This document shows positions 3,001-61,652 of a stretch of 64,000 nucleotides of DNA, in pieces. Position 1 is the first letter of the stretch; the number at the start of each line of letters is the position of its first letter. Below the pieces are notes generated by a model that was not told the DNA's origin, ran no database searches, and saw only the letters and a program-made list of their open reading frames with translations. The translations under genes were made by a program, and so were the position numbers. The DNA lies in the IMG/VR virus record IMGVR_UViG_3300045988_141926, positions 380 through 64,379 of that record; one strand, written 5' to 3'. This DNA is from a virus.

Positions 3001-5469
3001 ATAAGTTAAGAAAATACTAGACCCAGGTAATAAATCTTGAACAGAAAATTGACTAATATTATTTGATTCAAAATCTATAGTAATATCCATACCTGGCTCA
3101 TATTCATTTAAATAATAACTACGCCATAATGAAATATATTTACTAACAATATCAGATTTTATAAATCCATATTTTAATAAATTTTCATAAGTTAAATCCG
3201 CAATTTCAACACATTGTCCGGTAAAAGAATGAAGCATACGTCCTAGTGTATCTACTGGCGACATAGAAATATTCATAATACGAACGATAAAATTCCCTTC
3301 TGGTCCAGACCGGAATAATTTAGGCTATCCATTATTTAACCAATCTAAGACTTCCATTTTAAAATTGCGCTCTTTATGAATATTATTTTCAATTAAATCA
3401 CAAGGATTTTCTAATACTTTTTCCATACGATCAAAAAATTCTGTACTATTTTTAATATCGGCATGGTCAGTACAAGTTCTAATATAATCTTGAATTTCTC
3501 TATCATAAAATAAAATTTCATCATCCATTTGGTAAGAAATTAATCCACTAATAGGAAATTCTTTATAAGCAACTTTTCCATTTCTGAAAATAAAGGGAAA
3601 TTTATTGCCAATTGTATTTGTTTTTTGTTCTAATATTGTAGTTTTAAATGAAGATACTTTAGGATTGAATTTTACTTTTAAAACTCTATCTCCATCATAT
3701 AAAAAGATATCTTCAAAATCAACTGAAACGGGTTCACTTTCAATACGAGAAGAGTAAATACCAAACAAATTATATTGAATTATACCATAAATATATTTAA
3801 CACCTTGTTTAACAGTATAATCATTATAATCCACTAATGATGGTTTCATATTTTCAAGTTTAAATCGTTTTAATTCTAACCAAGAACGATATTCATCCTC
3901 TTCGCTGGCCCTTACTAAAATGTATTGACCAAAATAAGTATCTTCTTGTTTATCTACTTGGTATTCAATATTAGAATCATATCCTAAAATATGTAAATAT
4001 TCTTTAGCTAATTCAGTAGATAAATTAGCCGTAGTAATAATATTTTGGCATAAATTAATTAAACTCTAATCTGTAACAATCTAATCTAACTCTGTTTCAT
4101 CAGCATTTATAGAATCCTATAAATAATTTAAATAAGAATTTACTCTATTCTATAAAATAATATTTAAATTTTTATATCCTTCAAATGAAGTAGCAATATA
4201 TACTGTAGTATTCCATAAAAATTTACTAAATAAATTATAATAATTTATTTCTTCTTTTTCTTTACCGATATTTTCTATAACAGAACCTAAATATTCTCCT
4301 AAATATAAATCAAATTCTTTTGATTCCATAATTAAAGACTCTAAAATACCAGTAGAAATACCACACATATCATTTAATAATGAAACATTATCTCGTAAAT
4401 ATATTCTATACTTTTCTAAAATATTAACAACAAATCCTGATTCCTAAATTCGATCAACCCACTCTTTAATTTGCGGATTATCTGGACTATTTGCCCCTTG
4501 ATAGAATCGTTTTAATTTTATCATTAAATTTTTAGAATAATTATAATAAGTATTAATACGAGTCATTTCCTTAATAACATTTTCTTGACGGACTACTCGT
4601 TCAATACCATGAAAATTAACATTAATACATCCACTATTTGGATGAGGGTCTGTTGTGATTGAAATACTTTTACTAGGAGCTAATAAAGTTTCTGCTGTTA
4701 CTCTATACATTGGGCTTGATGCCACATATCCATTTAAAGTTGTAACAGTATAAACTAATTTATAAACTTCACTAGTTTTAATGAAACTACTTAAAACAAC
4801 TGAATCAGTAGATATTCCATATTCAATATCATTAGAATTATTATGTAATAATTCACCAGTGGTATAATATAATTCCCCTTCTTCTGTATAAAATGAAAAA
4901 TTATAAGAATATACTTTTTCACTCTAATCAAAATCAGAAGATAATTCATACAAACCAAATAAATTATTATTAAATAAATTAATACTATCAATTGAATACC
5001 CTTTAACTGAAATTTTAGGTTCCTAAATACATTTAATAATACCAATAGTAGAATAGTATCCTGTTAATTTTTTAACAACATTAACTGTAATAGTTTCTTT
5101 CGTGTCAGGATCTTCTTTTGTTTCAGTCTATGTATATTGTGAAATATAGGCTAATTGTACCTTGTAATACTAACCTTCATTTAATAAGGCTCCCTAAGAA
5201 GGAGGTATCGTAAATGTAACAGTAGAATTAGCAGTATTAAAATCCATTGATTCGATTGGATTAAATAAATAAGTATTTGTTGAAGCAGTTTTTAATCGTA
5301 AAACAAATCCAACAAATTCTTTATCATTGACCGCGGCACTCGCAGTAAAAGGAATTGTAATCTGAACATCCTTTAATACTTTCGTGTCGCCTGTTTCAAT
5401 ATAACTCTTACAAAAAGCAGGTAAAGTACCTGCTATTACAGGAGGATATAATCTTTCAGGCATAGTCAT
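1..5469 (-). CDS. Giant tail fiber / tail-associated lysin-like structural protein, 3' end beyond window (>1820 aa)
   Basis: A continuous minus-strand frame runs from the ATG at 5469 (SD AAGGAG upstream) to position 1 with no TAA/TGA, only in-frame TAG, checked codon by codon. It sits after the tape measure and Dit-like genes. The start overlaps the upstream stop as ATGA. Confidence 0.6.
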
Positions 5470-8381
5470 TCTCCTTTACCACATAATTATTATTTATTTT
5501 CCAATGCTTGAATGCGTTTTACTAAATTTGGAATTGTTGTTTGCTATAATGTATTGAAATTACTTTCCAAAATTTGGATACGTTGTTCTAATTTATCGCA
5601 CCTATCAATTAAAGTCTTAATAGTAGAATTTGAAGATAAATTACATTGGACGGGTACTCCATTTAAGAAATATACTGGGTTCCCAGAGCTTCCAATATTT
5701 AATAAACTTTTATAATCAGCACTTGCTAAATTCTATGCTGAAGTAGCAGTTTTTATCCAAGCTTCTCCCTAATCGTTTATTTTAAATATATTTTTTTTAT
5801 TATCAAAAGCGTATAAACCATATTCTTCTAAATTATTATTATTTTTAAATGTACCCATTAGTACACCTTTAGTCTAATTACTATTTAATTGTCCTACTGT
5901 AGTAGAAATTAATTGTAAAGTTTCGTCATTAAAATTAATAGCTGCCCCTTGTAAATCATTCCACATTGCAATAGGATAATTATTTTTAATCACTACAATA
6001 GGCTATATCCATACTATTTTGTCTGTTTTATTCTATGCCTATACATAGAGACAAGTTGAATTATTATCTTGAGAGGAAAATACAGTAGGCGGAATAATTA
6101 TATTATTTTCAAATTTCCACTATGCTAAAATTTTGTTCTCATCATTTTTAATATTATTCTGCAAGCTCCAATTTAAATTTTCAGATACAGTTTCAAACCC
6201 ATCCATTTCAGTTGTATATTTAAAAATTTGATAATTAGTTTTTTCATATACCGGTTTTTTACCAGTAATATCATAAGTTATTATAGAGCATCCATCAGCA
6301 CAAACATATTCTGGATTAAATGTAGTAGGAATACTAATATATCCCTCTAAATTATTATTATTATAAGTTCCTTTTACTTTAACCACTAATTTTGATAAAA
6401 GATTAATATCAGATTCTGTTAATGCTTCATGAATTTTAATAATATTATCCACTAATGAAATCTTATCAGAATTTAAAGAATTATAATACCATTCATAAGT
6501 TAATTCAATATCAGAACGTCCTTGCCAAGTATAATCATATAAATTAGCAACTATTCGATACTCCTTATCTTGAGAAATAGGACAAATAACTTTACAATCC
6601 TTATACTAATCTTTAATTTTTTCTTGTAGTGATAATTGAAGTACACAATTAGCCCCAGAAGAGCCGCTATTACCAAATAATAATTCAATTGAACTGGTAT
6701 ATATCTAATTATTAATTTCAATTTCACATTTAATTGTATTATTTCTAAAAAGTGGATTGTATAAAGAGTTAATTCTAAAAGGTATATAATATATTTTAGT
6801 TGTAGGATTTAAATAATCATACATAGGAGCAGTATTTTTATCAGTATTTAATATATGCTCAAACTCATACTCATCATGCTTATTTATCTTTCCATTTTCC
6901 ACTGGAATAATCATTGTTTTTTTAGAAGGTAGCATATATCGTAATCGAACACCATTTGTCAATGTTGTAGTCTTACTAGTATCTTTGCTATTAAATTCTA
7001 CCGCAATATAATGGATTTTTTCTCCATCAGAACGAGCTAATAATTGGTTATCTTGTCCATATATATAAAATGTATTATTATTATTATTCGTAAATAAATT
7101 TAAACCAGCTAATAAACCAATATCTGGATTATATAATGTATTTGTATAAGAACATGACTAAGAATATCCTAAAACTTCTCTTGTTCCTATTTTACCTTTA
7201 AAATAAATCCTATATGATTGAGTAAAAATCTAATCTCCTAAACGGAGAGAGATAGAAATTGTATTACCCGCAAGAATAGGAATCTCATCATAGCTGCCAT
7301 CTGCTCTTGCACCTAAACGCCACCAACCTTGACCAAATACTGAACTATTTTCAGTTACATCTTTATCATAAGAATATAACCATATTTCTGCCCCAGTAAA
7401 TGTAGCCAAAGTCCCTGAAGTCATATCTATAACTCTAAACCCCATTGTAACCTTACGTTTTTCTTCATCTTGAGAGGGAGTGAACTAATATCTATTGCTA
7501 CCTCTTGGATATAAATAAACGCCAATATTACTATCAGTTGTAATATCTGAAAAATTACTTTTATAATATCCTAAATATAAATTTATATTTTTAAAAACAA
7601 TTGAAAAAGAATCTGAACTATCAATTTTATTATTATCACTATCGTAAAAATTGCCATTTTCCCATAATTCAATTTGGATATCATTAATAATTAAATTAGT
7701 AACATCTATATCAAAATATTGAGAAGTATAACCTCCTGTTTTATATGCACTTAAAAATAACATATCTTTATTAGAGGATATTGTTGTGGTCTGTCGAGTA
7801 AATGTTTTTAATTCTTTTGTTGTCTAATCTTTTCCACTTAATATAATACGGATACCATAAGTACCTTTATTTAAAGTTTTTGCGCCATTATATAAATCAG
7901 CCATTAAATTATAAGAAATACGTAAAGTCGTATATCCTACTAATTCATTATTACTTATATAACTCTGAGGACCCATAATAGTTTTACTAGACTCTCGACC
8001 TTCAGAACTAGGAATTAACACAATCTCTTTACTCTAATTAAAAAGCTAATTAGCTGCATAAAAAGTTTTAGAATCATCTTTACCAATTACTTCATAATCA
8101 CTAATTACACGTCCAGTAATCAATTTCTTACCAGAAAAATCGCCTTGTGGAATTAATACATAAACTTCTTCATTAAGAGCATAAGATTTATCTTTTTCAT
8201 TAACAAAAACTGTTAATTTAGCTCCTTTATAATTTACAATATATTTCTATGCTCCTTCAATACTTTCAGGAACACTTTCTACTACTCCAACTATTGTCTA
8301 GTCAAATGGTAAATTCTATAATCGAGCAGATACAATTGTGTCTACTGATCGGAATATTTTTTCATTTAATTCATTAGACAT
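5466..8381 (-). CDS. Large tail/baseplate protein (Dit-like position), ~971 aa
   Basis: Frame-0 minus ORF from the ATG at ~8381 (SD AAAGGAGAG) to the TGA at 5466-5468. Only in-frame TAGs were found. The TGA overlaps the next gene's ATG, so translation is probably coupled. Confidence 0.55.
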
Positions 8382-18613: not shown

Positions 18614-19690
18614 TTACCAATTATAACTATCGTGAGATTTCTGGTGAACTGTACTATGACGATGTAAGTCATCATTATCCAGATATTCAATTACTTGAAT
18701 TGCAGCCAAAACTTTCTTACTATGATTGAAACGAGTGTAATCAGGGAATGCGTCTAAGGTGAAAGTAAATGTACTTGGGTCACCAGAAGAAGCCATAGTA
18801 AAGGTGAAGTTAGACTGAATCTTGCAGTTAGGAATAATGAATTCAGCAGGCATATCTACACCGTTAGTATCACGGAATAGAGTAGAAGCCTCAAGATAAT
18901 AGTTGCCACCAAACTTATCAGCAGTAATTTCCATCTGAGTAGCACCAGACTTGCGCTCAGTATAATAATCAACTAGCACAGAATCAAACTTTAGACGATT
19001 TGGTAGAGTGACTACATCGTAAGCCGGGTCGCCACTTTCACTCTCATATTTATGTCCTTTATTCTGCTCATCTTCATAAGAAGCTAAACCAACATACATT
19101 TTATGATCCATAACAGCTACACGATAGTAGGTTTTACCATCTAGGTCAGTTACAGTCTCAGGCATAGCTTCACTATCAATAGCAGTATCATCACCCTCAT
19201 GAACAGGAATATAAGGCTCAGTAGTAATTTCACCATTCTTCATAAACATTACATAAGCAAAGTTATCACCAGCATTACCAGGTAGATAAGGCTTATTCTC
19301 AGTATAAACGGCAAACTTAAATCCAGTAGCATCAAACTTGAAACGTAATGAATCACTAGCATCAACAGTCTCAGTAATATGCTGATAGATTGGCTTATCG
19401 GCATTAGCAGCAATTAGGCCAGCACCAGAAAGAATCATAAATCCTTCAGGAGAAATTAGAGCATCCTCCATAGTGAAGGTCAGAGTTCTTTCACCTTCCC
19501 ATGCTACCAAACGAGAGTTACCACGACCACCTTGTGCATATACAGTGGTAGCAGCACCTTCTAAACTAGAAGTTTTCAGGGTGTCAAAATAAATAACAGG
19601 TTCACCAGCATAGAACACCTTATTACCGATTTTCTGTGCTGACTTAGCCTTTAATACAACATCACAAATTTCGCGGACACCGAATTTCAT
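18614..19690 (-). CDS. Major tail (tube) protein candidate, 358 aa, no TAG, elevated GC
   Basis: Intact ORF with SD GGAGG. Its GC content and codon usage differ from its neighbours, like a highly expressed structural gene, and it is followed by a terminator. Confidence 0.45.
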   Translation of the reverse strand: MKFGVREICDVVLKAKSAQKIGNKVFYAGEPVIYFDTLKTSSLEGAATTVYAQGGRGNSRLVAWEGERTLTFTMEDALISPEGFMILSGAGLIAANADKPIYQHITETVDASDSLRFKFDATGFKFAVYTENKPYLPGNAGDNFAYVMFMKNGEITTEPYIPVHEGDDTAIDSEAMPETVTDLDGKTYYRVAVMDHKMYVGLASYEDEQNKGHKYESESGDPAYDVVTLPNRLKFDSVLVDYYTERKSGATQMEITADKFGGNYYLEASTLFRDTNGVDMPAEFIIPNCKIQSNFTFTMASSGDPSTFTFTLDAFPDYTRFNHSKKVLAAIQVIEYLDNDDLHRHSTVHQKSHDSYNW

Positions 19691-19717
19691 AGTGTTATTT
19701 CCTCCTTGTATTTTTAA

Positions 19718-23122: not shown

Positions 23123-23710
23123 TTATTCAGCAGATTTAGTTTCAGTTTGCTTTACTACTTTATAAGCATTTCCAGAAGTACGACGTCCTGCTGGAGCAGA
23201 TTCTGTAACACGTCTTTCAGCTGGCTTATCTGCAATAGTTTCCTTTTTATCATCTTCTTTACTAGCGCGATCATTTTCGATAGCCTTATCTACATCAAAA
23301 CCAGTCTTAGCCTTTAAAGCTTCACGTTTAGCCATATCAGTGATAGGCAATTGAACAGACATAGTTTTAATTAAATCAATAACTCCAATAGGAGCAAAAT
23401 CAAGAGCATCTAAAAATGCGTCAATAGAACCGTTAAGAATTAAATCACGGACTTGCTCTTCTGACATATTATATTCAGGCTCACGATGAACATTTAAATC
23501 GTCAGTAACTTCATTTTCCATAATCTGTAAGAAATTAGCAATTAATTCACGTCCACCAGGTTGATAAGTCAATTTTTCTAGTTCCCCAAATGGAATGCGC
23601 TTTACCTCACCGGGCGCCCACTCGCGTCTCAAATTACTCTCAGGAATTCTATATACAACAACACTAGTACTTCTATTTTTTACATTAAACATATCTTCAG
23701 AACGAATCAT
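23123..23710 (-). CDS. Head-associated protein, 195 aa, no TAG, elevated GC
   Basis: Intact ORF with SD AAGGAG and stop TAA. Lies just downstream of the capsid gene. Confidence 0.5.
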   Translation of the reverse strand: MIRSEDMFNVKNRSTSVVVYRIPESNLRREWAPGEVKRIPFGELEKLTYQPGGRELIANFLQIMENEVTDDLNVHREPEYNMSEEQVRDLILNGSIDAFLDALDFAPIGVIDLIKTMSVQLPITDMAKREALKAKTGFDVDKAIENDRASKEDDKKETIADKPAERRVTESAPAGRRTSGNAYKVVKQTETKSAE

Positions 23711-23736
23711 TTTATTATCTCCTTTTTCTCTAAAAA

Positions 23737-23783
23737 AAATAAGGGGAGAGGGAGTAAATCCCTTCTCCCCTTAAATGAAATCT
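23737..23783 (-). terminator. Strong hairpin immediately after the major capsid gene
   Basis: aggggagaggga-gtaaa-tcccttctcccct. Confidence 0.5.
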
Positions 23784-23798
23784 ATATTAAGGTTTAAA

Positions 23799-24905
23799 TC
23801 AAATTTGTCCACTTAGACGTCCATCATAGGTAGCAACCTTACCAGTTACACCATCATAGTTCCAAGTATACATCTGACCCATTAATGAAGTATCAACATA
23901 AGAGCAAATGTTGTTAGCCAACATACAACCAACGCCGACCTTCTTATAAACCTGAATCTCACGAGAACGATCATAATTGCTGAATTCATCAACAATAGTG
24001 CCACCCTCGAAAGCAATCTTTACAGGCTTGCCATCAACACCAGTAGGAATAATCCAAGCATAACCAGGATCAATAACCTTACGGGTATTACTTTCATCCT
24101 CGAAGCCCTGCTCTAGAATAACAACCTTGGTTCCCTTATAAGAAGCCAAACGACCAGTATTCCACAGCTCAGTCTTCATAGCTTCAGTATAACGCCAAGC
24201 TTCATTAGGAATCATACGAACAGCAAATTCATAAGTACAATAAATAGTAGGAGTACCATAAGCAGAAGCGATGGTAATCAAACGATCCATAGCACCCTCA
24301 TCGAAACCTGCTGCAGCAACACGGTTAGCAGGAGGTAGCTGATTGATAGAAGACTTCAAAGCTAAAGCAACTTCCTTGTAAATCAGTTCATCCATACCAT
24401 CCATAATAATCTTGGTAACTTCAGCGAAGTCAACACGACCATCTAAGAACTCTTCGAAGCCAATTTGAGCAGCTCCACCGATAGCAGAGGTACGAACCTC
24501 AAAGCTCTCGTTCTCAGCAGGTCCCAGCTTGAAGACTTCATAAATACCAGCCAGTCCAACACGAGTTACGAACTGCTTAGCACGTGCGCGTGTATTTAGA
24601 GGACGACGGAAAATGGGCTTATCACCCTGAGCAAACTGCTTAACTTCAGCAAACTGCTCATAAGACTGAGAAACCTTCTTAGGAAGAACTTCATCCAAAG
24701 TTTCCTCAATCATTGAGAAAATCAGATTTTTATTTTCACGATATAGAGCATTGGTACCAGCCAGCTCATTCATCTCATTACGTAGAGTATCATTCAGAGC
24801 CTCATAAGAAAGGTTCTGACCATTATAACTGTAAGCCACAGGAGAAGAAGGATCAGCCTTAGCAACAGTCTTCATTAAAGCAACTAAATTGTTTCTATCT
24901 AACAT
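23799..24905 (-). CDS. Major capsid protein (HK97-fold type), 368 aa
   Basis: Intact ORF with elevated GC and no TAG. The sequence resembles phage major capsid proteins. It lies downstream of the scaffold gene. Confidence 0.7.
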   Translation of the reverse strand: MLDRNNLVALMKTVAKADPSSPVAYSYNGQNLSYEALNDTLRNEMNELAGTNALYRENKNLIFSMIEETLDEVLPKKVSQSYEQFAEVKQFAQGDKPIFRRPLNTRARAKQFVTRVGLAGIYEVFKLGPAENESFEVRTSAIGGAAQIGFEEFLDGRVDFAEVTKIIMDGMDELIYKEVALALKSSINQLPPANRVAAAGFDEGAMDRLITIASAYGTPTIYCTYEFAVRMIPNEAWRYTEAMKTELWNTGRLASYKGTKVVILEQGFEDESNTRKVIDPGYAWIIPTGVDGKPVKIAFEGGTIVDEFSNYDRSREIQVYKKVGVGCMLANNICSYVDTSLMGQMYTWNYDGVTGKVATYDGRLSGQI

Positions 24906-24922
24906 TATTCTTCTCTCCTTTC

Positions 24923-25855
24923 TTACGCAATACGTAGAATCTTAGCGCCACGTTGTCCATCAGGCATAGTATATACCTTAACAACCTGCCACTTCATATC
25001 CTGGCTCTCATCCTTAGCTAAAATACCCTTGGCATCAGGAGCTAGAATGTCACCAACAGAAACACTATCTTCATTAATCATATTAGTAGTGTAATGATCA
25101 CCAACATTAGTCTTAAAGACACGAGGAACCATTGCGGTACCTGGAGTCATGCGCTTCTCATGATATACACCAAGCTTCTTATATGGATCATTAGTCCAAG
25201 TTAGCTCTTCGTAAATATCAGCGACATCAGTTAGAACCTTATCATAAGCATACTTTACAGGTACAGGAGTCTTAGTTTGATTGGTCTTAGGATCAATCTC
25301 ATACTCTACACCATTATAAGTAAACTTATTGTCCTTAACATCATAAACTTCGCCAGCAATAGTAACGGTCTTTAGGCCCTAGTCTAAAGAAACAGTGTGC
25401 TCAAGCACCTTATGGTCAGCACCAGTTTCATCAACACCATTCCAGAAACGTCCACCATACTCAACCTCAGTATGCTCCCAATCATATGGAGAATAAATAC
25501 GAGCCTGATAATCGTCCTTTAGCATAGCAAATTCGCAATCCCACTGCTTAGTTCCATCAGGATGATCACGATATAACTTAATCTCATTGTAAACTAGCAT
25601 CCACTCGCCCTTGCCAGTAAAATTCACTTCACCAATGCCATTATCATTAGCGGCGTAATCGTACTTAACAAACTGACCGTTTTCAAGAATATTAATATCC
25701 TTGTTAGCAGGCAACTGAGCATAAATTTGAGCGGTTCTTTGTGCAGACAGGTGATTTGGCTCAACCTGACCATAACCAAACTCAACATACTTAGCCTGTG
25801 ACTTAGGTGGATTCTTACCAACGCCTAAATGAGAATTTAAAAAATCCTTAAACAT
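24923..25855 (-). CDS. Capsid-associated protein, ~310 aa, one in-frame TAG
   Basis: The fragment ORFs 25379-25855 and 24923-25150 share a frame and are joined by a TAG at 25379. GC is elevated. Confidence 0.5.
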
Positions 25856-29518: not shown

Positions 29519-31252
29519 TTAGTTTAAGAAACACCAATCTTTAGCATTAAACTTTTTACGTTTCTTCTTTTTATCTTCTTCTAATTTTAAATAATATAGT
29601 CCATATTCAAAAGCAGAAAATTTATCTTTTCGGATACTTTTATTTGCTTGCTTCAGGATAATATTTACTCCTTCAGTTTCTTCACGCAAATTCATCATTT
29701 CTTCTTTTAATATGGAAGTTAAAGTAAATGGTTTTAATTCTTCTGCCCTCTATTCTGGAGTCATAGTTTGACCTTTCTTTTTAGCAAGAAGTTTATTTTT
29801 TGCTACGCGCTCATCAATTAAAAATTTTACTTTTCCAGAAGCGAGTTGTGATTTAGCAATAGCGTGAGCTTCTGTATTAAGTGGCGCATTAGCTTTTATA
29901 ATATACATAGCATCTAATACGGTATTAGATGTTTTATATTTCTTGTAAAATAAATCATCATCATTAACAACGCCAAAATCAGGGAAGATTTCGTTGGTTT
30001 CAGGGTCAATCTATGTTTTAACCATATAATCAATTAAACCAATTCCTAAACCATTACCATCAATTACAATTCTATCAGCATTATATTTATAATATAATTT
30101 TTTTAATTTAATAGTTTGGTCTTCAAAATGCTCATCAGACAATGTATATAAGTTTACTAAACTTTTAATTGAACCACCTTGTGATTGTGGGGTCACTTTA
30201 AATACACAAATAACTGAATCACATCCTTTACGGCCAACGTCGACCGCAAGTACATAAGATGCTAATTTTGAATTACGCCCAGATGCTTCATATTCAGGCT
30301 AATTTAATATTCTATTTCTATCAAATATTTCAGCATTAAAAAACGCATCTTCTACAGTACCAGACCATTTACTTTCATATTCTCGGTCAAATGAACTTTC
30401 ATTGAATGTTCCGTCCATTTTTAGGTCTTTAATAAAATTCGCATCCAATAATTTCATTAAAACAGGAATACGATAAGTACCACCCATAATAATGGATTGC
30501 TAAGGTTTAACAATTTCCCAAACTAATAATTGAATTAATTTATCATAAGGGAATGTATTTTTATACCCAGCAGTAGTAATATAAATTTGAGATTTATTAA
30601 GAGTTTCATCAGGTTGAGTAGTACCATCCATACACATACGAGAAATATTCATTGTAGGGATAATAACTTGTGATAGAATATCACCATCAACACCAACACA
30701 CTCTTCGATTAAACCACCATGGCGACGTTTACCACGAGAAGACTCTCTCGCGGCAATATTGTCAAAATATGAACCATTTTTAAATACATATTTAACATAA
30801 TCTTTTCCTTCAAGTGTCTAGCCACGGCGCCAATCTATTTCTTTCTAAAATGCAGGAATAAGAGTACAAATTTCTTGGACTTTTTCTTTTACAATTCCAG
30901 CCGCTTGTTCTTTACCACCAGAAGTAATAAATAATTTACATCTGGGATATAAAATCGCACGACACATTAAGACCATCATTGATAAAAAAGATTTTGAATA
31001 AGCACGAGGAAATACTGCATAAATATATTTATGACGCATCGCAGCGCGCAAAAAAATTCTCTAATAAAAATAGAGTTTAAAATGTTGAGGGCCGCCATCG
31101 GGTCCTGCCATAAAGTCGATAAACATATCTGGATATTCTCTCCAAAAGGCTATGTACTATCTTGCTTCTGGTATAATTGCACGAAGACGGTCCTCTGAAA
31201 TTCCAATCTTTTTACGCTTCTAAGATAAATCAAGTAAATCCTATAAAGCCAT
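29519..31252 (-). CDS. terL: Terminase large subunit (~577 aa), about 8 in-frame TAG
   Basis: P-loop-like RAYSKS and a nuclease-domain region (ESKWSG). The fragment ORFs 30845-31051, 30299-30487 and 30011-30196 share a frame. SD GAAGGA. Confidence 0.7.
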
Positions 31253-31253
31253 A

Positions 31254-32450
31254 TTATCCTTCTAAATTCCTCAAAGTCTAAGCATCTATTTCAGACTCTT
31301 CTTCAAGGAAATCATTATATTCAATTAAATCTTCATCTTTGAGATGGTCAATCTCTTCCATCGTTAAATCTTCTTCAATATCTTGGTCTTCTTCTTTATT
31401 TTCTTCTTCTTGCATTTTCTTGATAGCACCTTCAATGAGATTACCTAGATTCATTTCTTCGGTGACCAATGTATGTGTATAATTCTTTAAATCTTGTAGA
31501 GTTTCATCAACTTTATCTTTTGGACCTTCTGTGTAATACCGAGGAATAAATCCTTCAGTTTCACACATAGCCACTAATTCTCCGATAGAATCAAATGCTT
31601 CTCCTGTATCAGCCTTGTTTTGAGCGGCGGTGAAATTACCTGATTTCATTAGACTATCATAAACCTTGCTCATCTTTTGGAAACCTTCGATATCACCAAT
31701 ATCGATTAGCTAGTTCGCCTTCAAGGATGTTTTACAAATTAACTTTAATGTATCAATATGACCAGCGCCACGAATATCATAAGAACTCATCATTTCTTCA
31801 TAGAGTTGCTCTAATTTAACCCATTCTTCTGGTTTATAAGCTTTACCCCATTTCATACGAAGATATAGAATATCTTCTTCTGTTAAATCGAGGTCATCTG
31901 CTGGGTCATGTTCAATACCATTCTATTGGTCAAAATAATTATCACCATCTCTAAAACGCTCTGGTAATTCAGGAGTATAAGGTTTTAATTCTTCTTCTGG
32001 AATGGCGACGGTAGATTTAGCAATAGCAGTTGCTATTTGCTAGGCATCATAGCCTTGTCGTTTCATAGTTTGCTCTAATTTATTATTAGCCACTTCCTAT
32101 AAAAACTCAGAATCTTTCCATCTATAATCTTTATATTGTTTAAGTTTCATTTTGGACAAATATCTACCTAAAATACTCATACCAGTTAATTTAGATTTAT
32201 CTTGTCCATATTTCATCATTAATTTACTCCACTCATCAGGAACGTATGGTACATCAATCTCTTGTAAAATCCACATATAAGTTTCTGGATTCCAGTTATC
32301 TACAAGCATTGTGATGCATTTTTTACATTGAGGGAGTTTTCCATCATTTGGATATTTTTCTAAATTATTAGATGTATAGAATTGGTCAGCGCCCATAGTT
32401 CTATTACATCGTTCGCAATAATATACTTTATTACTATTATCTACAGCCAT
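31254..32450 (-). CDS. Hypothetical protein (~398 aa) with N-terminal CxxC...CxxC
   Basis: ATG at 32450 with SD AGGAGG. The frame is continuous through TAGs to the TAA at 31254, next to the terL start. Confidence 0.4.
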
Positions 32451-32492: not shown

Positions 32493-33557
32493 TTATAACT
32501 GTTTGCCCTTGTTTTTGGCATTGCGGCATTTTTTACAAATACTATAATAACCATCTTTACTAGTTTTATTTTTGCTAAAATATTTATTATGTGCTAATTT
32601 AATTTGCCCACAGCGACTACATTTTTTATATTTACCTTTTGCTTTATGTAAATAGTAATCATATAGGTATTGGTCTTCAGCCGCTGAAGCGATTAATTTA
32701 GGAATTTTATTGCGCCATAAACTAGAAATATATTCTAAACTATGGGTAATATTAAATTCCTCTTGGATTCTCTTTTGGATGTCTATATTCTATAATCCAT
32801 CAATTTTATATTCAACTATTCTGTCATATAGTGGATAATCTTTAAGAGCGATGGTACATAAATTATCAAAATCTTCCATAATATACCATAAATCTCTTTC
32901 AAAATCTCCCCAACTATCTTGTTTTAAACGAGAATAATTACATAAAATTGCAGAACATACTCTAGGATCTAATAGTGAAATGCCATCCGGGATTGGATAA
33001 CCATCATCATCAAAAATGCAAGTTGTGTCCTCTAATGGAATAAAATTTCTTGAACGAGTAATTTTAGTCATAATAATTGGACGACGAACCGCATTTTTAA
33101 TAACATACTAATCTTTACGCATTTCAATAATAGCACGTTTAATTATAAATGCTTCGCGTCCTTCACTAACTCGTAATTTGGCTTCCCAAGTAGTAATGGC
33201 GTCTCTCAACTATTTTAAATGAGGTATTTCTTCTATATCTTTTTTAGTAATTGTAATTTTAGGCTAAAATATTGTATTTTTATTTTCAGTAATTAAATTA
33301 TAAATTCCATCTTCGCCATTCTCAAATTGGGAAACAAGACCTTCAAAAGATGTTTCACGTTTATTAACTGTTGCCATACGATTATCAGTTAATAGTTTAC
33401 GCTCCTTCTTCTCTTGTTTCTCCATACAAAGAATGATATAGTCCCCTAATATTTCTAAATATCGAGGAGAGGGGTCTGGGGTTTCCTCTAATATTTTCTT
33501 GACTAATTCATTTCTTTCTTCTGGAGTTTGTAAGGAATAATCTAATTTTATCATCAT
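32493..33557 (-). CDS. First gene of the late operon (~354 aa), C-terminal Zn-ribbon
   Basis: ATG at 33557 with SD GGAGGT. C-terminal CSRCGQ...CKKC motif. The frame continues through TAGs at 33264 and 32790. Confidence 0.4.
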
Positions 33558-33725
33558 TACCTCCAGATTTTTTTACGTCTTCATTATACAAAAAATTTTT
33601 CCAGGTGTCAAATTTTAATAAATGCATTTAAAAAATTTTTAAACGATACTATTAATTGGAAAAAATTTGACAATAAAAAAAATTTTTTGTATTATTATTA
33701 TAATAAAAAATAAAAGGAGAAGTTT
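33558..33725. promoter_or_regulatory. Divergent promoter region between the late operon and the plus-strand block
   Basis: ORF-free and AT-rich. Contains TTGACA...TATAAT upstream of the 33726 gene. Confidence 0.45.
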
Positions 33726-35388: not shown

Positions 35389-35468
35389 TTCTTGAAGCAT
35401 TAGCATTAATAGGATTAATTTTATTTTTTCCTATTTGGTTTTTTGGTAGGAATAAAATTAAAAAATAA
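35385..35468 (+). CDS. 27-aa hydrophobic peptide
   Basis: MILEALALIGLILFFPIWFFGRNKIKK. Confidence 0.3.
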   Translation: MILEALALIGLILFFPIWFFGRNKIKK

Positions 35469-35530
35469 TTAAAAAAGTTCTACCGTTATCCAAATTGAAA
35501 AAAGTTCTACCGTTATCTGAATTGAAAAAA
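35469..35530. repeat. 2x ~25-bp direct repeat (aattgaaaaaagttctaccgttatc)
   Basis: Direct repeat. Confidence 0.6.
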
Positions 35531-35853
35531 GTTTTGGTGAGAGTTTGTACCAGCCAAACAAAAAAATAAAAATCAAAAAAAATTTTTTCCCGAAACCCAC
35601 CCCCCCCGGTCGGTTTTTATCTGAGAAAAAATCTGAACACTATCGAGGCCTTCTTGGGCTTGGCGCACGCGGAAAGGCTAGACCATCCCCAATACAGCCC
35701 CTCAACTCACAGGACCGCGAATGGCTGTCGCGGTCCTCATTCGCAATAAATACAAACTCCACAAAAAATCTCTCGCAAATTTGTGTATTCTGCCAATAGA
35801 CAAGCATCCTGAAATCTGGTATAATAGTATCATCAATCAAGGAGGAATAGTCT

Positions 35854-35949
35854 ATGTCTATCATCTACAAAGTCGTGCGCTTCATCACCGCGGTCGCTGT
35901 TGTCGCGGGCATTGGCATCCTGATGTGCCTCATCTGCCTCCCTCATTGA
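35854..35949 (+). CDS. 31-aa hydrophobic peptide with its own promoter, SD and terminator
   Basis: TAGACA-17-TATAAT, SD AAGGAGG, sequence MSIIYKVVRFITAVAVVAGIGILMCLICLPH. Terminator cctccctcattgagggaggtttttt. Confidence 0.45.
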   Translation: MSIIYKVVRFITAVAVVAGIGILMCLICLPH

Positions 35950-35977
35950 GGGAGGTTTTTTGTTGCCCTAAGATTGT

Positions 35978-36780
35978 TAAAAATTTAACAATGTAGCAAG
36001 ATTGTTAAAAGATTAACAATGTAGCGAGATTGTTAAAAATTTAACAATCACTCAACCAAGAGAAGACAAGGACACGCACGGCACAGTAGACAAGGCAGAG
36101 CGAGCCAACGAGCGAGCGACCAACAGACAAAGAGAACAACACACAACACAACACAATGATAGATACATTGTTAATGTATTAACAATGTAGTATAGTAGTA
36201 TGGTATGGTAGGGTATGGGTGGGGTGGGCTATGGGTAGTAGGTAGGGAGAGAGAGTAGGCCGACAATAAGAGAATGGAGCGCGCTTCCCACCGGTCGGGT
36301 ACACCGGGAACCGCGCACGATAAATCTAATGTAAGTATTCTATTTCTCTTTTGGGTTCATCATCGTTAACGGCCCTAATCGCCCAAGAATAAGCCCTCGC
36401 ACAATTGCCAAACAATACAGCGGCGCAGGCGCTGAACAGCGCGTATCCCGCAACACACAGCTCTCACAGAGGGGCGAGCAAGATTGTTAAAAATTTAACA
36501 ATGTGAGAGCCAAGAGCAAGAGAGTAAAGAGTGCGCTTGCACAGGTAGCAAGGAGGACACGCACGGCACAGTTGATACATTCGCTGACCGAGCAAGATTG
36601 TTAAAAATTTCACAATGTGTGGATGTGGTGAATGTGCTGTTTAATTGTTAAAAATTTCACATTCGCTGTTGGATGCCGAACACGGTCGCAACGCCCCAGA
36701 CTTCACCACATTAAAGTGTTAAAGAAAAAAAATCGCAAATCCGATTGTTAAAATAATCACAATCTTCGTCCCGAAAATAA
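35978..36780. repeat. ORF-free region with at least 8 copies of the 18-bp palindrome TTGTTAAA-NN-TTTAACAA, plus direct repeats and G-runs
   Basis: Copies at ~35981, 36008, 36035, 36166, 36483, 36596, 36644 and 36742, plus 37862. Also holds a T-depleted segment (36062-36155) and a C-depleted G-run segment (36188-36285). Confidence 0.7.
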
Positions 36781-36863
36781 ATAGGTTATTTTTGAAAAAA
36801 CCTCTTGACAAATTACCCCAAGTGTGCTACAATGATTACAGTAAAACAAAGGAGGACGATACA

Positions 36864-37100
36864 ATGTCTAACATCTATGGAGTCTGCTACACCACGAAAG
36901 AGCCTGTTGTCTACAACAGAGGGACACAGTGGGAGAAAACCTGTTCCGACTTCCTGTTCGTTCAGGCAAACAAGGACAATGGCACAAAGCTGGTGGACAA
37001 ACTGAACGCTATGCTTGCCGAGGGTGTGGAAAAATACGAACTGTTGGACATGACCAAGATTGACCATTTCTATCTTGACAAGTCCGAGGAAATGTATTAA
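36864..37100 (+). CDS. Hypothetical protein, 78 aa
   Basis: TTGACA-17-TACAAT, SD AAGGAGG. Confidence 0.55.
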   Translation: MSNIYGVCYTTKEPVVYNRGTQWEKTCSDFLFVQANKDNGTKLVDKLNAMLAEGVEKYELLDMTKIDHFYLDKSEEMY

Positions 37101-37113
37101 GGAGGAAATGACA

Positions 37114-37302
37114 ATGACACGCACTATCGCTAATACCTACATCTGTATCAACGCCGAGGGGCAGACCCTTTCCATCATCGCCCGCACGGGTAACGAAGCC
37201 CACAACATCGCAATAGGGTTTTTGCGGAAAGCCAACATCGTGAGCGTTCGCCGCGTATTCAAGTCCGGCAAGCTGGGCAAGGAAATTCTGAAAATCAAGT
37301 AA
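37114..37302 (+). CDS. Hypothetical protein, 62 aa
   Basis: SD GGAGG. Terminator at 37308-37334. Confidence 0.5.
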   Translation: MTRTIANTYICINAEGQTLSIIARTGNEAHNIAIGFLRKANIVSVRRVFKSGKLGKEILKIK

Positions 37303-37405
37303 AAAAATAGGGCGCAAGCCCTATTTTTTTTTTGAAAAAACTATTGACAAATCCCGCAACAGATGTTATAATGAATACAGAAATTAAGAAATGAGGTACA
37401 TAAAA

Positions 37406-37540
37406 ATGAAAAAAAGCACACAGGGTTGGTACAAATTCGCGGACGGCACACAAGCATGGTTTCACGGTCTGAGCGCGCAGGAGCGCAAGGTTGAGGAACG
37501 CAAGCACGGCAAAGTCGTGAGTTTCATCCCCACAGTATGA
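37406..37540 (+). CDS. Hypothetical protein, 44 aa
   Basis: Promoter with a conserved leader, SD GAGG, and a terminator. Confidence 0.45.
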   Translation: MKKSTQGWYKFADGTQAWFHGLSAQERKVEERKHGKVVSFIPTV

Positions 37541-37648
37541 CAGGGCGCAAGCCCTGTTATTTTTTTTTATTTTTTTTGAAAAAACTATTGACAAACACAA
37601 ATAAGCGTGTTATAATAAATACAGAAATTAAGAAATGAGGTATACAAA

Positions 37649-37837
37649 ATGAAGAACATCTATGAAATCGAGAACATCATCGACGGAATCTCCGCTGATG
37701 ACTGGGCTGGCATTTGTAATCTGATGGACTACTACTATCAGTCGAATTTCTCTGCTGACGCTGAACAGAGACTGGCAAGGGCAATCGCTCCTTACGGCTT
37801 GACCGTTGAGGAAATTCTGACCTGGGACGCTGAGTAA
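37649..37837 (+). CDS. Hypothetical protein, 62 aa
   Basis: Near-identical promoter and leader to the 37406 unit. Confidence 0.5.
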   Translation: MKNIYEIENIIDGISADDWAGICNLMDYYYQSNFSADAEQRLARAIAPYGLTVEEILTWDAE

Positions 37838-38067
37838 GCGTCCTATTTTTTTGCTGTTGGATTGTTAAAATTTTAACGAGCATCGTCGCGCTCATCAGGC
37901 ACGTGGCGCTCCGAAATATTATACCACAGCAGTCCACCAGTTGTCAAGAGAAAAATGCGAAAATTTCGCACAAAATTCGCCATCCCGATTTGTATAGTCT
38001 GCCAATAGACAAAATGAAATAAGCGTGTTATAATGAATACAACAAAACAACAAAGGAGATACACACT

Positions 38068-43704: not shown

Positions 43705-44448
43705 ATGGACTATTACGTTTACATAACAACAAATAAAATTAACGGCAAACAATACATTGGGTAGCACAAAGGACGCCCAGACGATAACTATTTAGGTAGT
43801 GGAACAACTATACTAAAAGCAATCAGCAAGTATGGCAAGGAGAATTTTACTAAAAGTGTTTTGTGTTTTTGTGAAACAAGAGAAGAAGCCGACGCAAAAG
43901 AACGAGAATACATCCAATTATACAACGCAGTAAATGATGATAATTTTTATAATAATGCGGAAGGTGGCACAGGTGGAGACGGCTGGCGCAGTTGTCAAAG
44001 ATGGCTGGAACAACATCCAGAAGAAGCGCAAGCCATGTATAAACGAAATGGGGAACATTTGCGGAAATGGTGTGATACTCATCCAGAAGAATACAAAGAA
44101 AAATGTATTAAGCCAATGTTAGAAGCAAGTCATAAGCGATTAAAAGAAAATCCTGAACTCGTTAAACAACAAGTAATAAGATTAAATCAGGCAAAAGAAA
44201 AATGGCAACAAGAACATCCAGAAGAGCACCAAGCACAAGTAAATGAATGGCGAAAGGCTGGAAGTATTGCTAATAGTAAAGCAGTAATTTGTTTAACTAC
44301 TAATCGTGTATTTGAGTCTCAATCAGCGGCGGCTCGATACTATGGCGTTCCACAAAGCAACATTAGTAAATGTTTGAAAGGAGAGCGTAAAAGCGCGGGA
44401 GTAGACCCTGATACGGGTGAAAAATTATTTTGGGAATTTGTAAAATAA
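43705..44448 (+). CDS. GIY-YIG homing endonuclease with a NUMOD-like C-terminal helix-turn-helix. In-frame TAG at ~43762
   Basis: YVYITTNKINGKQYIG-TAG-HKG matches the GIY-YIG motif. C-terminal region ...QSNISKCLKGERKSAG. Confidence 0.7.
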
Positions 44449-54465: not shown

Positions 54466-54550
54466 TTTATAGAAAATTTTGACCACTTTATCTAACACCA
54501 TCAGAAAATTTTGACCACTTTTATCAGAAAATTTTGACCACTTTATTTAG
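54466..54550. repeat. Iteron array: 4x AAAATTTTGACCACTTT(T)AT
   Basis: Direct repeats with about 20-bp periodicity. Confidence 0.7.
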
Positions 54551-54797
54551 GGAGTTCGTTCTTCACCCACAAAAATTCAAGACACGTCTTATTATCTTCT
54601 AATATTTTTAATCTATAATCTAATAATCCTAAACGTTTAAGAATATCAATAGTATCATCAATTATAGCATTATTAGATGTAGTAGTTGTAGCAATACCAA
54701 TATATTCTTTAATCTATCTAAATGTAGCGATAAATGGCTAAAAACTACTAGTATAGTATTTATTAAACAAATAAATATATATATTTATACTATTCTT

Positions 54798-55172
54798 CTA
54801 AAATACATTCATCATTTTTAATAATGTATTATATTCAATTAAATTAGCTTCTGACCCATCTAATACTGTTAAATAATAATATTCATCGCCTTCATCACTA
54901 ACAAGATTTGAATCAATTAAATAAGAAAAATATTTCGCAATAGTTTTACGAGACATAGCTTTTTCAATAGTTCCATCACTTAATTCACGAGTAAAATCAC
55001 GCTCAATACTAGCCCATTTAACTTTCTTTTTCTCTATTCTACGGCGTGAAGTATTTACATTTTCTCGTTCAGAATTACATTGAAGCCAGGCATATAATAA
55101 ATCGCAATAATCCTTTTCTCGCACAATAGATGTAGTTGATGGCATTTGACGAGAGTTCTTTTTAATAACCAT
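54798..55172 (-). CDS. Small basic protein (~124 aa) flanked by iterons; candidate replication initiator or regulator
   Basis: SD GGAGG. Iteron arrays lie on both sides. Confidence 0.45.
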   Translation of the reverse strand: MVIKKNSRQMPSTTSIVREKDYCDLLYAWLQCNSERENVNTSRRRIEKKKVKWASIERDFTRELSDGTIEKAMSRKTIAKYFSYLIDSNLVSDEGDEYYYLTVLDGSEANLIEYNTLLKMMNVF

Positions 55173-55235
55173 AAATACCAACCTCCTTCCATAGAACAAT
55201 AAAAATTACGCCTTTTCTATTGAATGGTCCTGACC

Positions 55236-60962: not shown

Positions 60963-61652
60963 TTGATGTTTATGATGATTTTTCCCACCTTACATATTGA
61001 GTTTGAAAAGTGGAAATTTAATAAGGAGTATGGAGTTTGGGTTTCTAACTTCGGCAACTTCAAGGACATTCATAAGCGTCCTATTCCTAAGAAAATCTTC
61101 CAGCAAAATGGTTATGTGTCTGTGAAAACCAAGCACGGCAATCGTATGGCGCATCGCTTGGTTATGTATACGTGGTGCCCCATTGAAGACCGCGAGGCGT
61201 TCACTGTTGACCACATTGACCACAATAAACGTAATAACCGCGTTGACAATCTGGAATGGGTCAGCCAGGCTGAGAATCTGATTCGAGCCCAGGATGACAT
61301 TGTGGTGAGTGCTGTTCCTACTATTAATAATGCGGGCGCCGAACCCGCCGGTCGGGACACTGGGAAAATTCTGGAAGAGTGCGACAATACTCTGGCCAAG
61401 TGGCTTGCCACTACCACGGACACCACTTGCCGTTCCTTTATCGTTCAGGAGGGTATCACTCTTGATACTGTTTTTACCAACACTGATGGTTTTAAGGGTA
61501 CGGCGATGGAGGCTATTGACTGGCTCCAAAAGCATAACTCTAAGGTCAGCACTACCGAAGAGAAGTTCTTCTTCAAACTGTGCAATAGCATCCGTATGGA
61601 CGGTTTTATGTATTCTCGTAAGTGGAATTTTTTGAGAGGAGTTAAACAATGA
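60963..61652 (+). CDS. HNH homing endonuclease with a NUMOD4-like N-terminus, 229 aa
   Basis: WVSNFGNF, HRLVMYTW, VDHIDHNKRNNRVDNLEWVSQAEN. Confidence 0.7.
   Translation: MMFMMIFPTLHIEFEKWKFNKEYGVWVSNFGNFKDIHKRPIPKKIFQQNGYVSVKTKHGNRMAHRLVMYTWCPIEDREAFTVDHIDHNKRNNRVDNLEWVSQAENLIRAQDDIVVSAVPTINNAGAEPAGRDTGKILEECDNTLAKWLATTTDTTCRSFIVQEGITLDTVFTNTDGFKGTAMEAIDWLQKHNSKVSTTEEKFFFKLCNSIRMDGFMYSRKWNFLRGVKQ

Follow-up and report, generated by a model that had tools for sequence, protein, structure and literature searches.

Phage takeover of host metabolism is known to proceed through proteins, namely the products of auxiliary metabolic genes and anti-sigma factors, and a few phages use single LexA boxes as induction sensors. 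Phages that co-opt host LexA in this manner include Bacillus phage GIL01, CTXphi, and coliphage 186 (tum). Here we analyze a stretch of 64,000 nucleotides (64 kb; positions 380 to 64,379 of IMG/VR record IMGVR_UViG_3300045988_141926; hereafter the window) from a tailed gut phage whose whole genome measures about 197 kb, i.e., ~200 kb, and describe in it an array of palindromes that match the operator of the host redox repressor Rex. As in the LexA-co-opting phages, the operator of a host repressor lies on the phage genome, where it would couple the phage to a physiological signal of the host; those phages have one or two operators that overlap a specific promoter and respond to DNA damage, whereas the sites described here are those of a redox sensor, Rex, and are gathered in large arrays that are mostly promoter-distal. 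In the searchable literature, we found no TAG-recoded gut phage described as carrying an array of host Rex operators, nor any natural decoy that a phage directs at a metabolic repressor of its host.

Rex is a redox-sensing repressor that sits on its operator at low NADH/NAD+ and leaves it when NADH rises. The operator consensus published in several papers for the Clostridiaceae is TTGTTAA-N4-TTAACAA (TTGTTAANNNNTTAACAA), and the motif obtained for Clostridium thermocellum Rex by DNA affinity purification sequencing, validated by electrophoretic mobility shift assays, matches it; a T/G alternative at position 5 separates the two published forms of the Rex consensus. The Rex operator (ROP) sites of Clostridia, which govern adhE, ldh, and butyrate-pathway genes, have the same 18-bp inverted repeat as the phage palindromes, with a free central 4 bp and tolerance of a TTGTGAA half-site. 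They differ from the phage loci in number and placement: the native adhE promoter has two sites, whereas the phage arrays have 8-15 sites per locus, mostly off promoter cores.

The palindromes lie in and just beyond a gene-poor stretch at 35390-36860 (1.47 kb), whose sole gene encodes a 31-aa hydrophobic peptide. The preliminary description of this DNA had noted at least eight copies in a region free of open reading frames (ORFs), and both statements hold: eight copies lie in 35974-36762 (seven within 35974-36662, the eighth being degenerate), a ninth lies at 37862-37879, and the only ORFs in the region are two on the minus strand (41 and 49 aa) for which no ribosome-binding site (RBS) was seen. 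With up to two mismatches allowed, TTGTTAAANNTTTAACAA finds nine matches in 64 kb against 0.19 expected. A weight matrix places all nine strong sites (score >20) inside 35973-37880 and leaves the remainder at chance level, so that the palindrome is a clustered element and not a motif of similar density genome-wide; this clustering supports the initial view of an operator-type array of protein-binding palindromes. The sites and the repeat associated with them are as follows:

35974-35991, 36002-36019, and 36030-36047: boxes 1-3, in tandem with a 28-bp period, each a perfect TTGTTAA-N4-TTAACAA
36168-36185: box 4, perfect, at the center of a 24-bp palindrome (36165-36188)
36484-36501: box 5, perfect
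36598-36615: box 6, a clostridial half-site TTGTTAA joined to a canonical Rex half-site TTCACAA
36645-36662: box 7 (TTGTTAAAAATTTCACAT), one mismatch to TTGTKAA-N4-TTMACAA
36745-36762: box 8 (TTGTTAAAATAATCACAA), degenerate, 42 nt upstream of the -35 element of the promoter at 36805-36833, with its center at about -86
37862-37879: box 9, an outlier just past the terminator of the gene at 37649-37837
36554-36575, plus strand: direct repeat AGGACACGCACGGCACAG, second copy

Boxes 1-5 are thus perfect, five of nine in all; box 6 has the canonical half-site, and each of the other three departs from TTGTKAA-N4-TTMACAA by one mismatch. The tandem triplet had been recognized correctly, with coordinates (35981-36055) that ran about 7 nt too far to the right of its true position, 35974-36047. 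Spacing between boxes is irregular (28, 32, 39, 41, 47 bp, and more), with no helical phasing. The 18-nt direct repeat AGGACACGCACGGCACAG, which had also been reported as present twice, indeed starts at 36069 and again at 36554; the second copy, together with the box preceding it, is a diverged duplicate of 36023-36090. This duplication of AGGACACGCACGGCACAG and its flanks indicates that segmental duplication enlarged the array. Another spacer motif that recurs, TTCACC-RCRTTAAAGYGTTAAAG, stands beside boxes in several clades, namely, in the window at 36695-36722 and in the loci L022 (around columns 1015-1085 of the relatives' alignment), L043, and L014.

To place the array in its family, we surveyed 139 loci (numbered with the prefix L) anchored on the sigma-factor-family gene that heads the late module of these phages, with sigma identities of 39-98%; this gene, which has more than 433 relatives, is an excellent family anchor. 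Among 11 distinct sequences of the window's own clade, we counted the variable columns of each segment. Only 7 of 112 half-site columns (6.2%) vary, in contrast to 34% of the central N4 columns, and variability elsewhere reaches 27% in ordinary spacer, 29% in a T-poor block, 42% in a GC-rich core, and 50% in a G-run block (the last three are described below). The half-sites are less variable than all nonbox columns (Fisher P = 3.5e-11) and than the N4 positions (P = 1.4e-4). This footprint of selection implies constraint on exactly those bases that Rex specifies, matching the information profile of the Rex motif. Across the arrays of the survey, the half-sites also interchange between published forms (TA 102, GA 21, TC 9, GC 5): canonical (TTGTGAA/TTCACAA) and clostridial (TTGTTAA/TTAACAA) half-sites mix freely, and a perfect canonical box, TTGTGAATCATTTCACAA, is found in L043.

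A BLAST search of the tandem triplet against GenBank phages revealed the same architecture in its native setting. The match is in an "unverified bacteriophage" record, MT835503.1 (10455-18519; our L162, labelled "UNVERIFIED: Bacteriophage sp."), which is probably a misclassified bacterial contig: the stretch that we read carries chromosomal-type bacterial genes, which encode a LysR regulator, an AdhE under Rex control, and a kinase-like protein. Two boxes in it repeat the 28-bp period of the phage triplet, flanked as there by AGATTGTTA...AACAATGT, and these overlap a predicted promoter directly upstream of the gene for a 900-aa bifunctional AdhE. Each native box has one mismatch; the phage boxes are closer to the consensus. 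A scan of 241 million metagenome records with the junction between boxes retrieved 26 loci, comprising 14 instances of this adhE promoter, 6 arrays of the window's phage clade, and 6 singletons. In the 14 adhE loci, AdhE is 99.5-100% identical, and the contigs, of up to 644 kb and 47-49% GC, bear the NCBI name "Clostridiales bacterium." No cultured phage or plasmid with the array was found, the best "phage" match being the bacterial adhE promoter itself. Bin labels of metagenome-assembled genomes gave no usable host: they are scattered over Clostridia, Lachnospiraceae, Bacilli, Mollicutes, Treponema, and methanogens, and the contigs concerned are misbinned phage.

The selection footprint, the interchange of half-sites, and the native adhE context are three independent lines that connect the phage boxes with Rex itself and not with a merely similar site. 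By motif, clustering, selection footprint, and identity of the tandem unit with the adhE operator, the palindromes are, as judged from sequence, host Rex operators: they have the inverted-repeat consensus, half-sites that carry the information around a free central 4 bp, and the architecture of a native Rex-regulon promoter. Most of them do not overlap a strong promoter, which weakens the case for a classical operator and leaves that for a Rex-binding site intact. The array offers a sequence-based host clue for an uncultured lineage of TAG-recoded ~200-kb phages, as it suggests a host among the clostridia whose Rex regulon is of the TTGTTAA type.

What such an array might do is best approached through its relation to promoters. 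Only 6 of 84 phage boxes fall within -45 to +40 of a strong promoter, a fraction that fits a promoter-independent role; the distances are otherwise irregular, ranging from -50 to -750, and the 800 bp of the window that hold eight of the sites contain no strong promoter. Our tentative preference, held with confidence a little short of even, is that this is a high-affinity host-Rex binding array working as a copy-number-dependent sink. We favor it because the boxes are mostly off promoters, are closer to the consensus than the adhE boxes, and are unaccompanied by any phage Rex that could be detected in the window or in the loci L001-L022. Dimers of the clostridial host Rex would be expected on the boxes at low NADH/NAD+. 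Replication of the phage would then present hundreds to thousands of high-affinity sites and titrate a limited Rex pool off the chromosome, de-repressing adhE and the other NADH-recycling fermentation genes that Rex controls, and the de-repressed fermentation would keep up NAD+ regeneration and ATP supply during infection. The binding of Rex to the array in vivo, its titration, and the metabolic consequence are steps that we infer from this arrangement, and a secondary, local effect of Rex at boxes 4 and 8 is likely.

The E. coli datA locus, a titration site for DnaA, is a natural example of this kind of element. Synthetic tandem decoy arrays of transcription factor sites have likewise been built (Lee & Maheshri 2012, PMC3322331). 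The phage array shares with such decoys its clustered high-affinity sites and its lack of a target gene, and, should titration occur here, it would also share an effect that scales with copy number. No gene for redox functions or fermentation is linked to it. If this proposal is right, phage noncoding DNA would act on host regulons via titration or, should the sites serve as sensors, the phage would read the NADH/NAD+ state of its host, a state that also shifts when NAD+-depleting defense systems fire.

Several observations weigh against the proposal of a Rex sink. The adhE-bearing Clostridiales bacterium is only a candidate host; titration would hinge on the copy number of Rex and on the burst size of the phage; the compositionally skewed blocks beside box 4 are not explained by a Rex model; and in L017 and L043, the boxes lie regularly between terminators and early promoters, an arrangement that speaks for cis-regulation or a stoperator-like function rather than for a pure sink. 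Three further points bear on the identity of the binder. The GA...TC flanks of the boxes are conserved beyond the Rex consensus, as might be expected if another protein bound them in place of Rex or besides it; L014 and L098 have a variant with 4 extra central bp, which a Rex dimer should not accommodate; and the search for a binder covered 64 kb of the ~197-kb genome, while that for Rex in the viral collection used two peptide patterns.

The placement of some boxes brings in the possibility that host Rex binds as proposed for the purpose of cis-regulation, with redox-gated operators or roadblocks holding local transcription at low NADH/NAD+ and releasing it when NADH rises or NAD+ is depleted, so that the phage would sense the energy or defense state of its host. 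A scan for promoters, RBSs, and terminators, which covered 33.4-40 kb, yielded the following elements near the boxes:

35797-35825, plus strand: promoter of the left neighbor of the array, followed by an RBS, the gene for the 31-aa hydrophobic peptide (MSIIYKVVRFITAVAVVAGIGILMCLICLPH; 35854-35949), and an intrinsic terminator (35936-35962)
36161-36156, minus strand: -10-like hexamer TATCAT on one side of box 4
36191-36196, plus strand: -10-like hexamer TATAGT placed symmetrically on the other side of box 4
36805-36833, plus strand: strong promoter TTGACA-17-TACAAT of the right neighbor, a 78-aa gene at 36864-37100 that is the first early gene downstream of the array
37947-37918, minus strand: perfect 12/12 promoter with an extended -10, directed antisense into the gene at 37649-37837 and towards box 9

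Candidate targets of such gating would be the divergent promoters at box 4, transcripts that read through from the cassette upstream, and the antisense promoter directed at box 9. Box 4 is the only box of the window that overlaps promoters, both of them weak: its half-sites double as -35-like hexamers on both strands, where each promoter has 9 of 12 matches, and the box is nearly invariant, with one substitution across six relatives. Rex may here gate two weak promoters that diverge from the box, their activity being predicted from the hexamers. Boxes 1-3 begin 12 nt past the T-run of the terminator of the upstream minigene; box 9, kept in all five of the closest relatives, lies about +40 downstream of the perfect antisense promoter; one box of L002 spans roughly +16 to +33 of a strong promoter; and pairs of boxes occupy early-cassette spacers in L017 and L043. 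CodY, moreover, is reported in the literature to repress via a roadblock besides promoter competition. Set against these cases are the small number of boxes that overlap a strong promoter core (the 6 of 84 noted above) and their irregular distances, the lack of helical phasing, and the weak, predicted nature of the box-4 promoters, and a density of eight sites per 800 bp, in a segment devoid of strong promoters, is excessive for gating. We consider it unlikely that cis-regulation is the main purpose of the array, although the two functions are compatible and not exclusive. The 31-aa peptide gene upstream, with its strong promoter of its own, is kept in relatives with conservative substitutions, and a perfect minus-strand promoter similar to that facing box 9 is found at 38851-38823.

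The conserved flanks and the variant spacing raise a different question, namely, whether the boxes serve a phage-encoded binder with Rex-like specificity, be it a dispersed-operator repressor or a centromere protein of the ParB/SopB type from a plasmid-like prophage. Many dispersed operators are known for the repressors of mycobacteriophage L5 and Streptomyces phage phiC31, whose stoperators and inverted repeats, respectively, are scattered genome-wide and bound by a phage-encoded repressor. Those sites resemble the boxes of L017 and L043 in occurring in many copies in early intergenic spacers, often after terminators; they differ in that a phage repressor binds them, whereas the scanned ORFs of our phage include no repressor, its motif is that of a host operator, and its sites are concentrated, within the window, in one gene-free array. 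The preliminary description had supposed an AbrB-like protein encoded just upstream and had suggested it as a possible binder. Neither part is supported: no Pfam match at E ≤ 0.1, to SpoVT-AbrB or otherwise, was obtained for the three ORFs upstream (54, 47, and 31 aa), the 54-aa ORF has no PHROG match, and the site matches the host Rex operator instead. Among the scanned ORFs of the window (three flanking ones and most of the larger ones of the early region), none encodes an AbrB, ParA/ParB, repressor, or initiator protein. A search for Rex by tblastn at E ≤ 10 gave only noise in the window and in L001-L022, and two Rex signature peptide patterns, of limited sensitivity, detected no Rex gene in 2.9 million viral contigs.

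In favor of a private binder are the GA-box-TC flanks, the regular 41-bp tandem array of L016, which is reminiscent of sopC, the +4-bp variant of L014 and L098, and the circumstance that inspection reached about one-third of the phage genome; a ScpB-like winged-helix protein is also encoded, at 54543-55205 on the minus strand, 18 kb from the array, by a gene that contains TAG codons. The variant palindrome in question, TTGTTAG-TTAATTAA-CTAACAA, has the same outer half-sites and replaces some of the Rex-type boxes in L014 (1070-1210) and L098. The absence of repressor, ParA/ParB, or Rex-like proteins from the scanned ORFs tells against such a binder, as do the identity of the box unit with a chromosomal adhE operator, the lack of arrays in most family members with no covarying accessory protein identified, and the occurrence, elsewhere among the phages, of LexA boxes (and CodY-like ones in L017) in spacers of this type. 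We therefore regard a phage-encoded binder as improbable and retain host Rex as the preferred occupant of the boxes.

The sites of other regulators came to light in the survey. Exact palindrome arrays are present in several other phage contigs, and the family as a whole is patchy: 101 of 139 loci are boxless and 16 of 139 have three or more boxes. In L002 (IMGVR_UViG_3300031760_000072), a noncoding region of about 1 kb (300-1250), 2.4 kb upstream of the homologous sigma gene, interleaves ten Rex-type boxes with LexA (Cheo) boxes; by the consensus taken from the literature, GAAC-N4-GTTC, there are 5 exact LexA boxes against 0.4 expected and 8 at up to one mismatch, with two perfect copies of CGAACGTATGTTCG. 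L017 (IMGVR_UViG_3300021400_001091), whose family membership is not established, has, in several spacers between early genes at 800-7000, single or paired Rex-type boxes beside a 24-bp palindrome, AATTGTCAGAAAATTCTGACAATT, that resembles two overlapping CodY boxes and occurs 23 times at up to two mismatches, against 2.9 expected. Its motif, AATTGTCWGACAATT, has two symmetric mismatches to the CodY box, so an outright CodY identity was set aside and we call it only CodY-like. In L029, a close relative without a strict-consensus box, packed genes take the position of the array with no equivalent gene-free region, and an early spacer (4065-4128) holds another tandem repeat (a TGATATTCAT-like unit, TGTATATTCAT) in about five copies with an 11-bp period, which may be the site of another regulator.

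The LexA and CodY-like boxes of other phages suggest that host global regulators, and not a private phage protein, are being exploited, and exploitation of host regulators would be the simplest reading of these motifs. A bolder generalization is that phages of this family carry protein-free "operator sponges," consensus-strength arrays for global repressors of the host that, with replication of the phage genome, would titrate these and switch on entire host regulons; we hold this to be possible but on balance doubtful. Under it, the sponges would be directed at Rex in the window, at Rex and LexA in L002, and at Rex and possibly a CodY-type regulator in L017, with NADH recycling and fermentation, the SOS response, and nutrient acquisition as the targets and no phage-encoded effector. 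Were it true, host metabolic takeover would be written in noncoding DNA. The same search logic is transferable to other phages and regulators, for example, to LexA and CodY-like arrays.

The patchy distribution that would suit a host-specific accessory trait bears directly on the function first proposed for this region, a replication origin, a partition centromere, or a packaging site, each of which should be a core feature. Tandem palindromic repeats in noncoding DNA are indeed the hallmark of the iterons of the lambda origin and of repeat centromeres such as F sopC and P1/N15 parS. The triplet recalls lambda-type iterons, as the 41-bp array of L016 recalls the centromeres; here, however, no cognate initiator or ParA/ParB was found, no AT-rich element is present, the family is patchy, and the repeat is a host operator. 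The strand asymmetry lends the origin further appeal, in that iterons would be accompanied by R-loop- or G-quadruplex-prone flanks around box 4: the skewed blocks are mirror-symmetric about that box, and for divergent transcription from it, the nontemplate strand would be GT rich on both sides. In addition, L002, L014, and L004 keep their boxes 1-2.5 kb upstream of the homologous sigma/terminase block. A GC-skew check gave an equivocal result: a cumulative minimum does lie nearby, at 33-34 kb and 2.3 kb from the array, but it coincides with the switch of coding strand and is inseparable from gene orientation. The elements that separate the array from the packaging genes are as follows:

29519-31270, minus strand: TerL, the large terminase
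32493-33572, minus strand: first gene of the late module, encoding a 354-aa sigma-factor-family protein (phrog_5767, E = 1e-53)
33611-33583, minus strand: perfect promoter of the sigma gene, TTGACA-17-TATAAT, diverging from an early promoter at 33667-33695

The array is thus 4.7 kb from TerL, with the sigma-factor gene and divergent promoters in between, which is not the placement of a pac or cos site. It is missing from most relatives that share the terminase block; the 101 boxless loci have the same layout, and mostly no other repeated palindrome stands in its place, a de novo screen having found none upstream of the sigma gene in 52 of 63 loci. An iteron origin would further be expected to have an AT-rich unwinding element beside the triplet, where the adjacent T-poor block has 52% GC, and an adjacent initiator gene; among the scanned ORFs near the array, there is no initiator, helicase loader, or small-terminase-type gene, and no ParA/ParB pair that would mark a centromere adjoins it. 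The G-run block is the least conserved segment, its quadruplex motif having been lost in 5 of 11 relatives, and the boxes of other phages are scattered through their early cassettes. The origin, pac, and centromere readings are accordingly not supported, and we rate an origin or packaging site as very improbable. The gene-free junction begins on its left with a pair of direct repeats of 27 bp (AAAAAAGTTCTACCGTTATCYRAATTG; 35471-35524), which hold a near DnaA box (TTATCCAAA) and are followed by a C-run (CCCGAAACCCACCCCCCCC) at 35589-35607; L014 and L043 have similar repeats and a C-run. As a family-wide core element, these were rejected, being present in just 18 and 15 of 107 loci, respectively. 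The stretch at 35530-35800 is almost invariant among close relatives.

The skewed blocks themselves, together with the noncoding core that follows them, are as follows:

36049-36156, plus strand: T-poor block of low-complexity ACG, 108 nt (A 50, C 32, G 24, T 2), including one copy of AGGACACGCACGGCACAG (36069-36090)
36186-36259, plus strand: C-poor G-run block with G-quadruplex potential, the most variable part, with indels
36260-36475: GC-rich noncoding core with a hairpin, GCGCGCTTCCCACCGG...CCGGGAACCGCGC, at 36279-36316

A T-poor stretch of about 95 nt had been reported at 36062-36155, and it is borne out in a somewhat longer form, the 108-nt block with 2 T; it is unique in the window, where shuffled sequences reach 76 nt at most. 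The adjoining C-poor segment also exceeds every shuffle (93 nt with at most 2 C at 36167-36259, against a shuffle maximum of 74 nt), while its end, which had been put at 36285, lies at about 36259. Likewise, the G-runs proposed to form a G-quadruplex are present, with six tracts in the window, and the canonical motif (at least four G3+ tracts, loops of up to 7 nt) is kept in 6 of 11 relatives. T-poverty and C-poverty are kept in 11 of 11 relatives; T nonetheless appears among the substitutions, and the blocks, which also show indels, evolve at least as fast as ordinary spacer. They are most economically viewed as a fast-evolving, low-complexity, slippage-prone spacer, and no positive support was obtained for a contribution of R-loops or a G-quadruplex to a transcription-primed origin.

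Other roles for these segments were considered and rejected. A structured RNA, or pairing between the T-poor and C-poor blocks, finds no backing on either strand: there is no Rfam match at the gathering threshold or at E ≤ 1, and the fold z-scores (+0.27, +0.18, -0.59, and -0.38) are no better than those of shuffles, with no excess in the T-poor block or in the core (-0.59 and -0.38). Coding by TAG readthrough from the ATG at 36184 through the G-run block was set aside as well, as no RBS was seen and the block lengths of the relatives differ by nonmultiples of 3. Nor are the skewed blocks a constant companion of the array, since only L014 and L017 show anything similar.

The wider genome places the array at a boundary between two coding regimes. 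The structural module occupies the minus strand at 1-33572 and encodes the match to a sigma-factor PHROG family, a 410-aa protein, the large terminase, portal, capsid, tape measure, and tail proteins; the sigma-family protein has a C-terminal CxxC...CxxC zinc ribbon. Long ORFs of this late module (1,825, 969, and 2,763 aa, among others) are open only under a code in which TAG specifies an amino acid, each gene containing 2-56 in-frame TAGs, and this reading applies to 1-33572 and 54543-55205, both on the minus strand. Three structural ORFs are free of TAG (18614-19717, 23123-23770, and 23799-24941), and the local GC content there is higher. No tRNA or suppressor tRNA was found in the window. 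TAG-recoded gut phage clades of ~150-210 kb have already been described in the literature, and the close relatives of the window phage are contigs of 129-198 kb. On the plus strand, from about 33.7 kb on, the genes are small and use the standard code; many early genes within the scanned 33.4-40 kb have their own near-perfect sigma-70-type promoter, an AGGAGG RBS, and a terminator.

At 35.6 kb, GC content steps from ~29% to ~45%, separating the recoded late module from the standard-code early region. A chimeric window or a prophage junction was ruled out as the cause, given that most of the 12 relatives profiled also show the step just upstream of the sigma gene. A low-GC island of 2 kb at 53-55 kb breaks the early region, which further contains two homing-endonuclease genes (HNH/I-HmuI-like) at 43861-44448 and 60966-61652.

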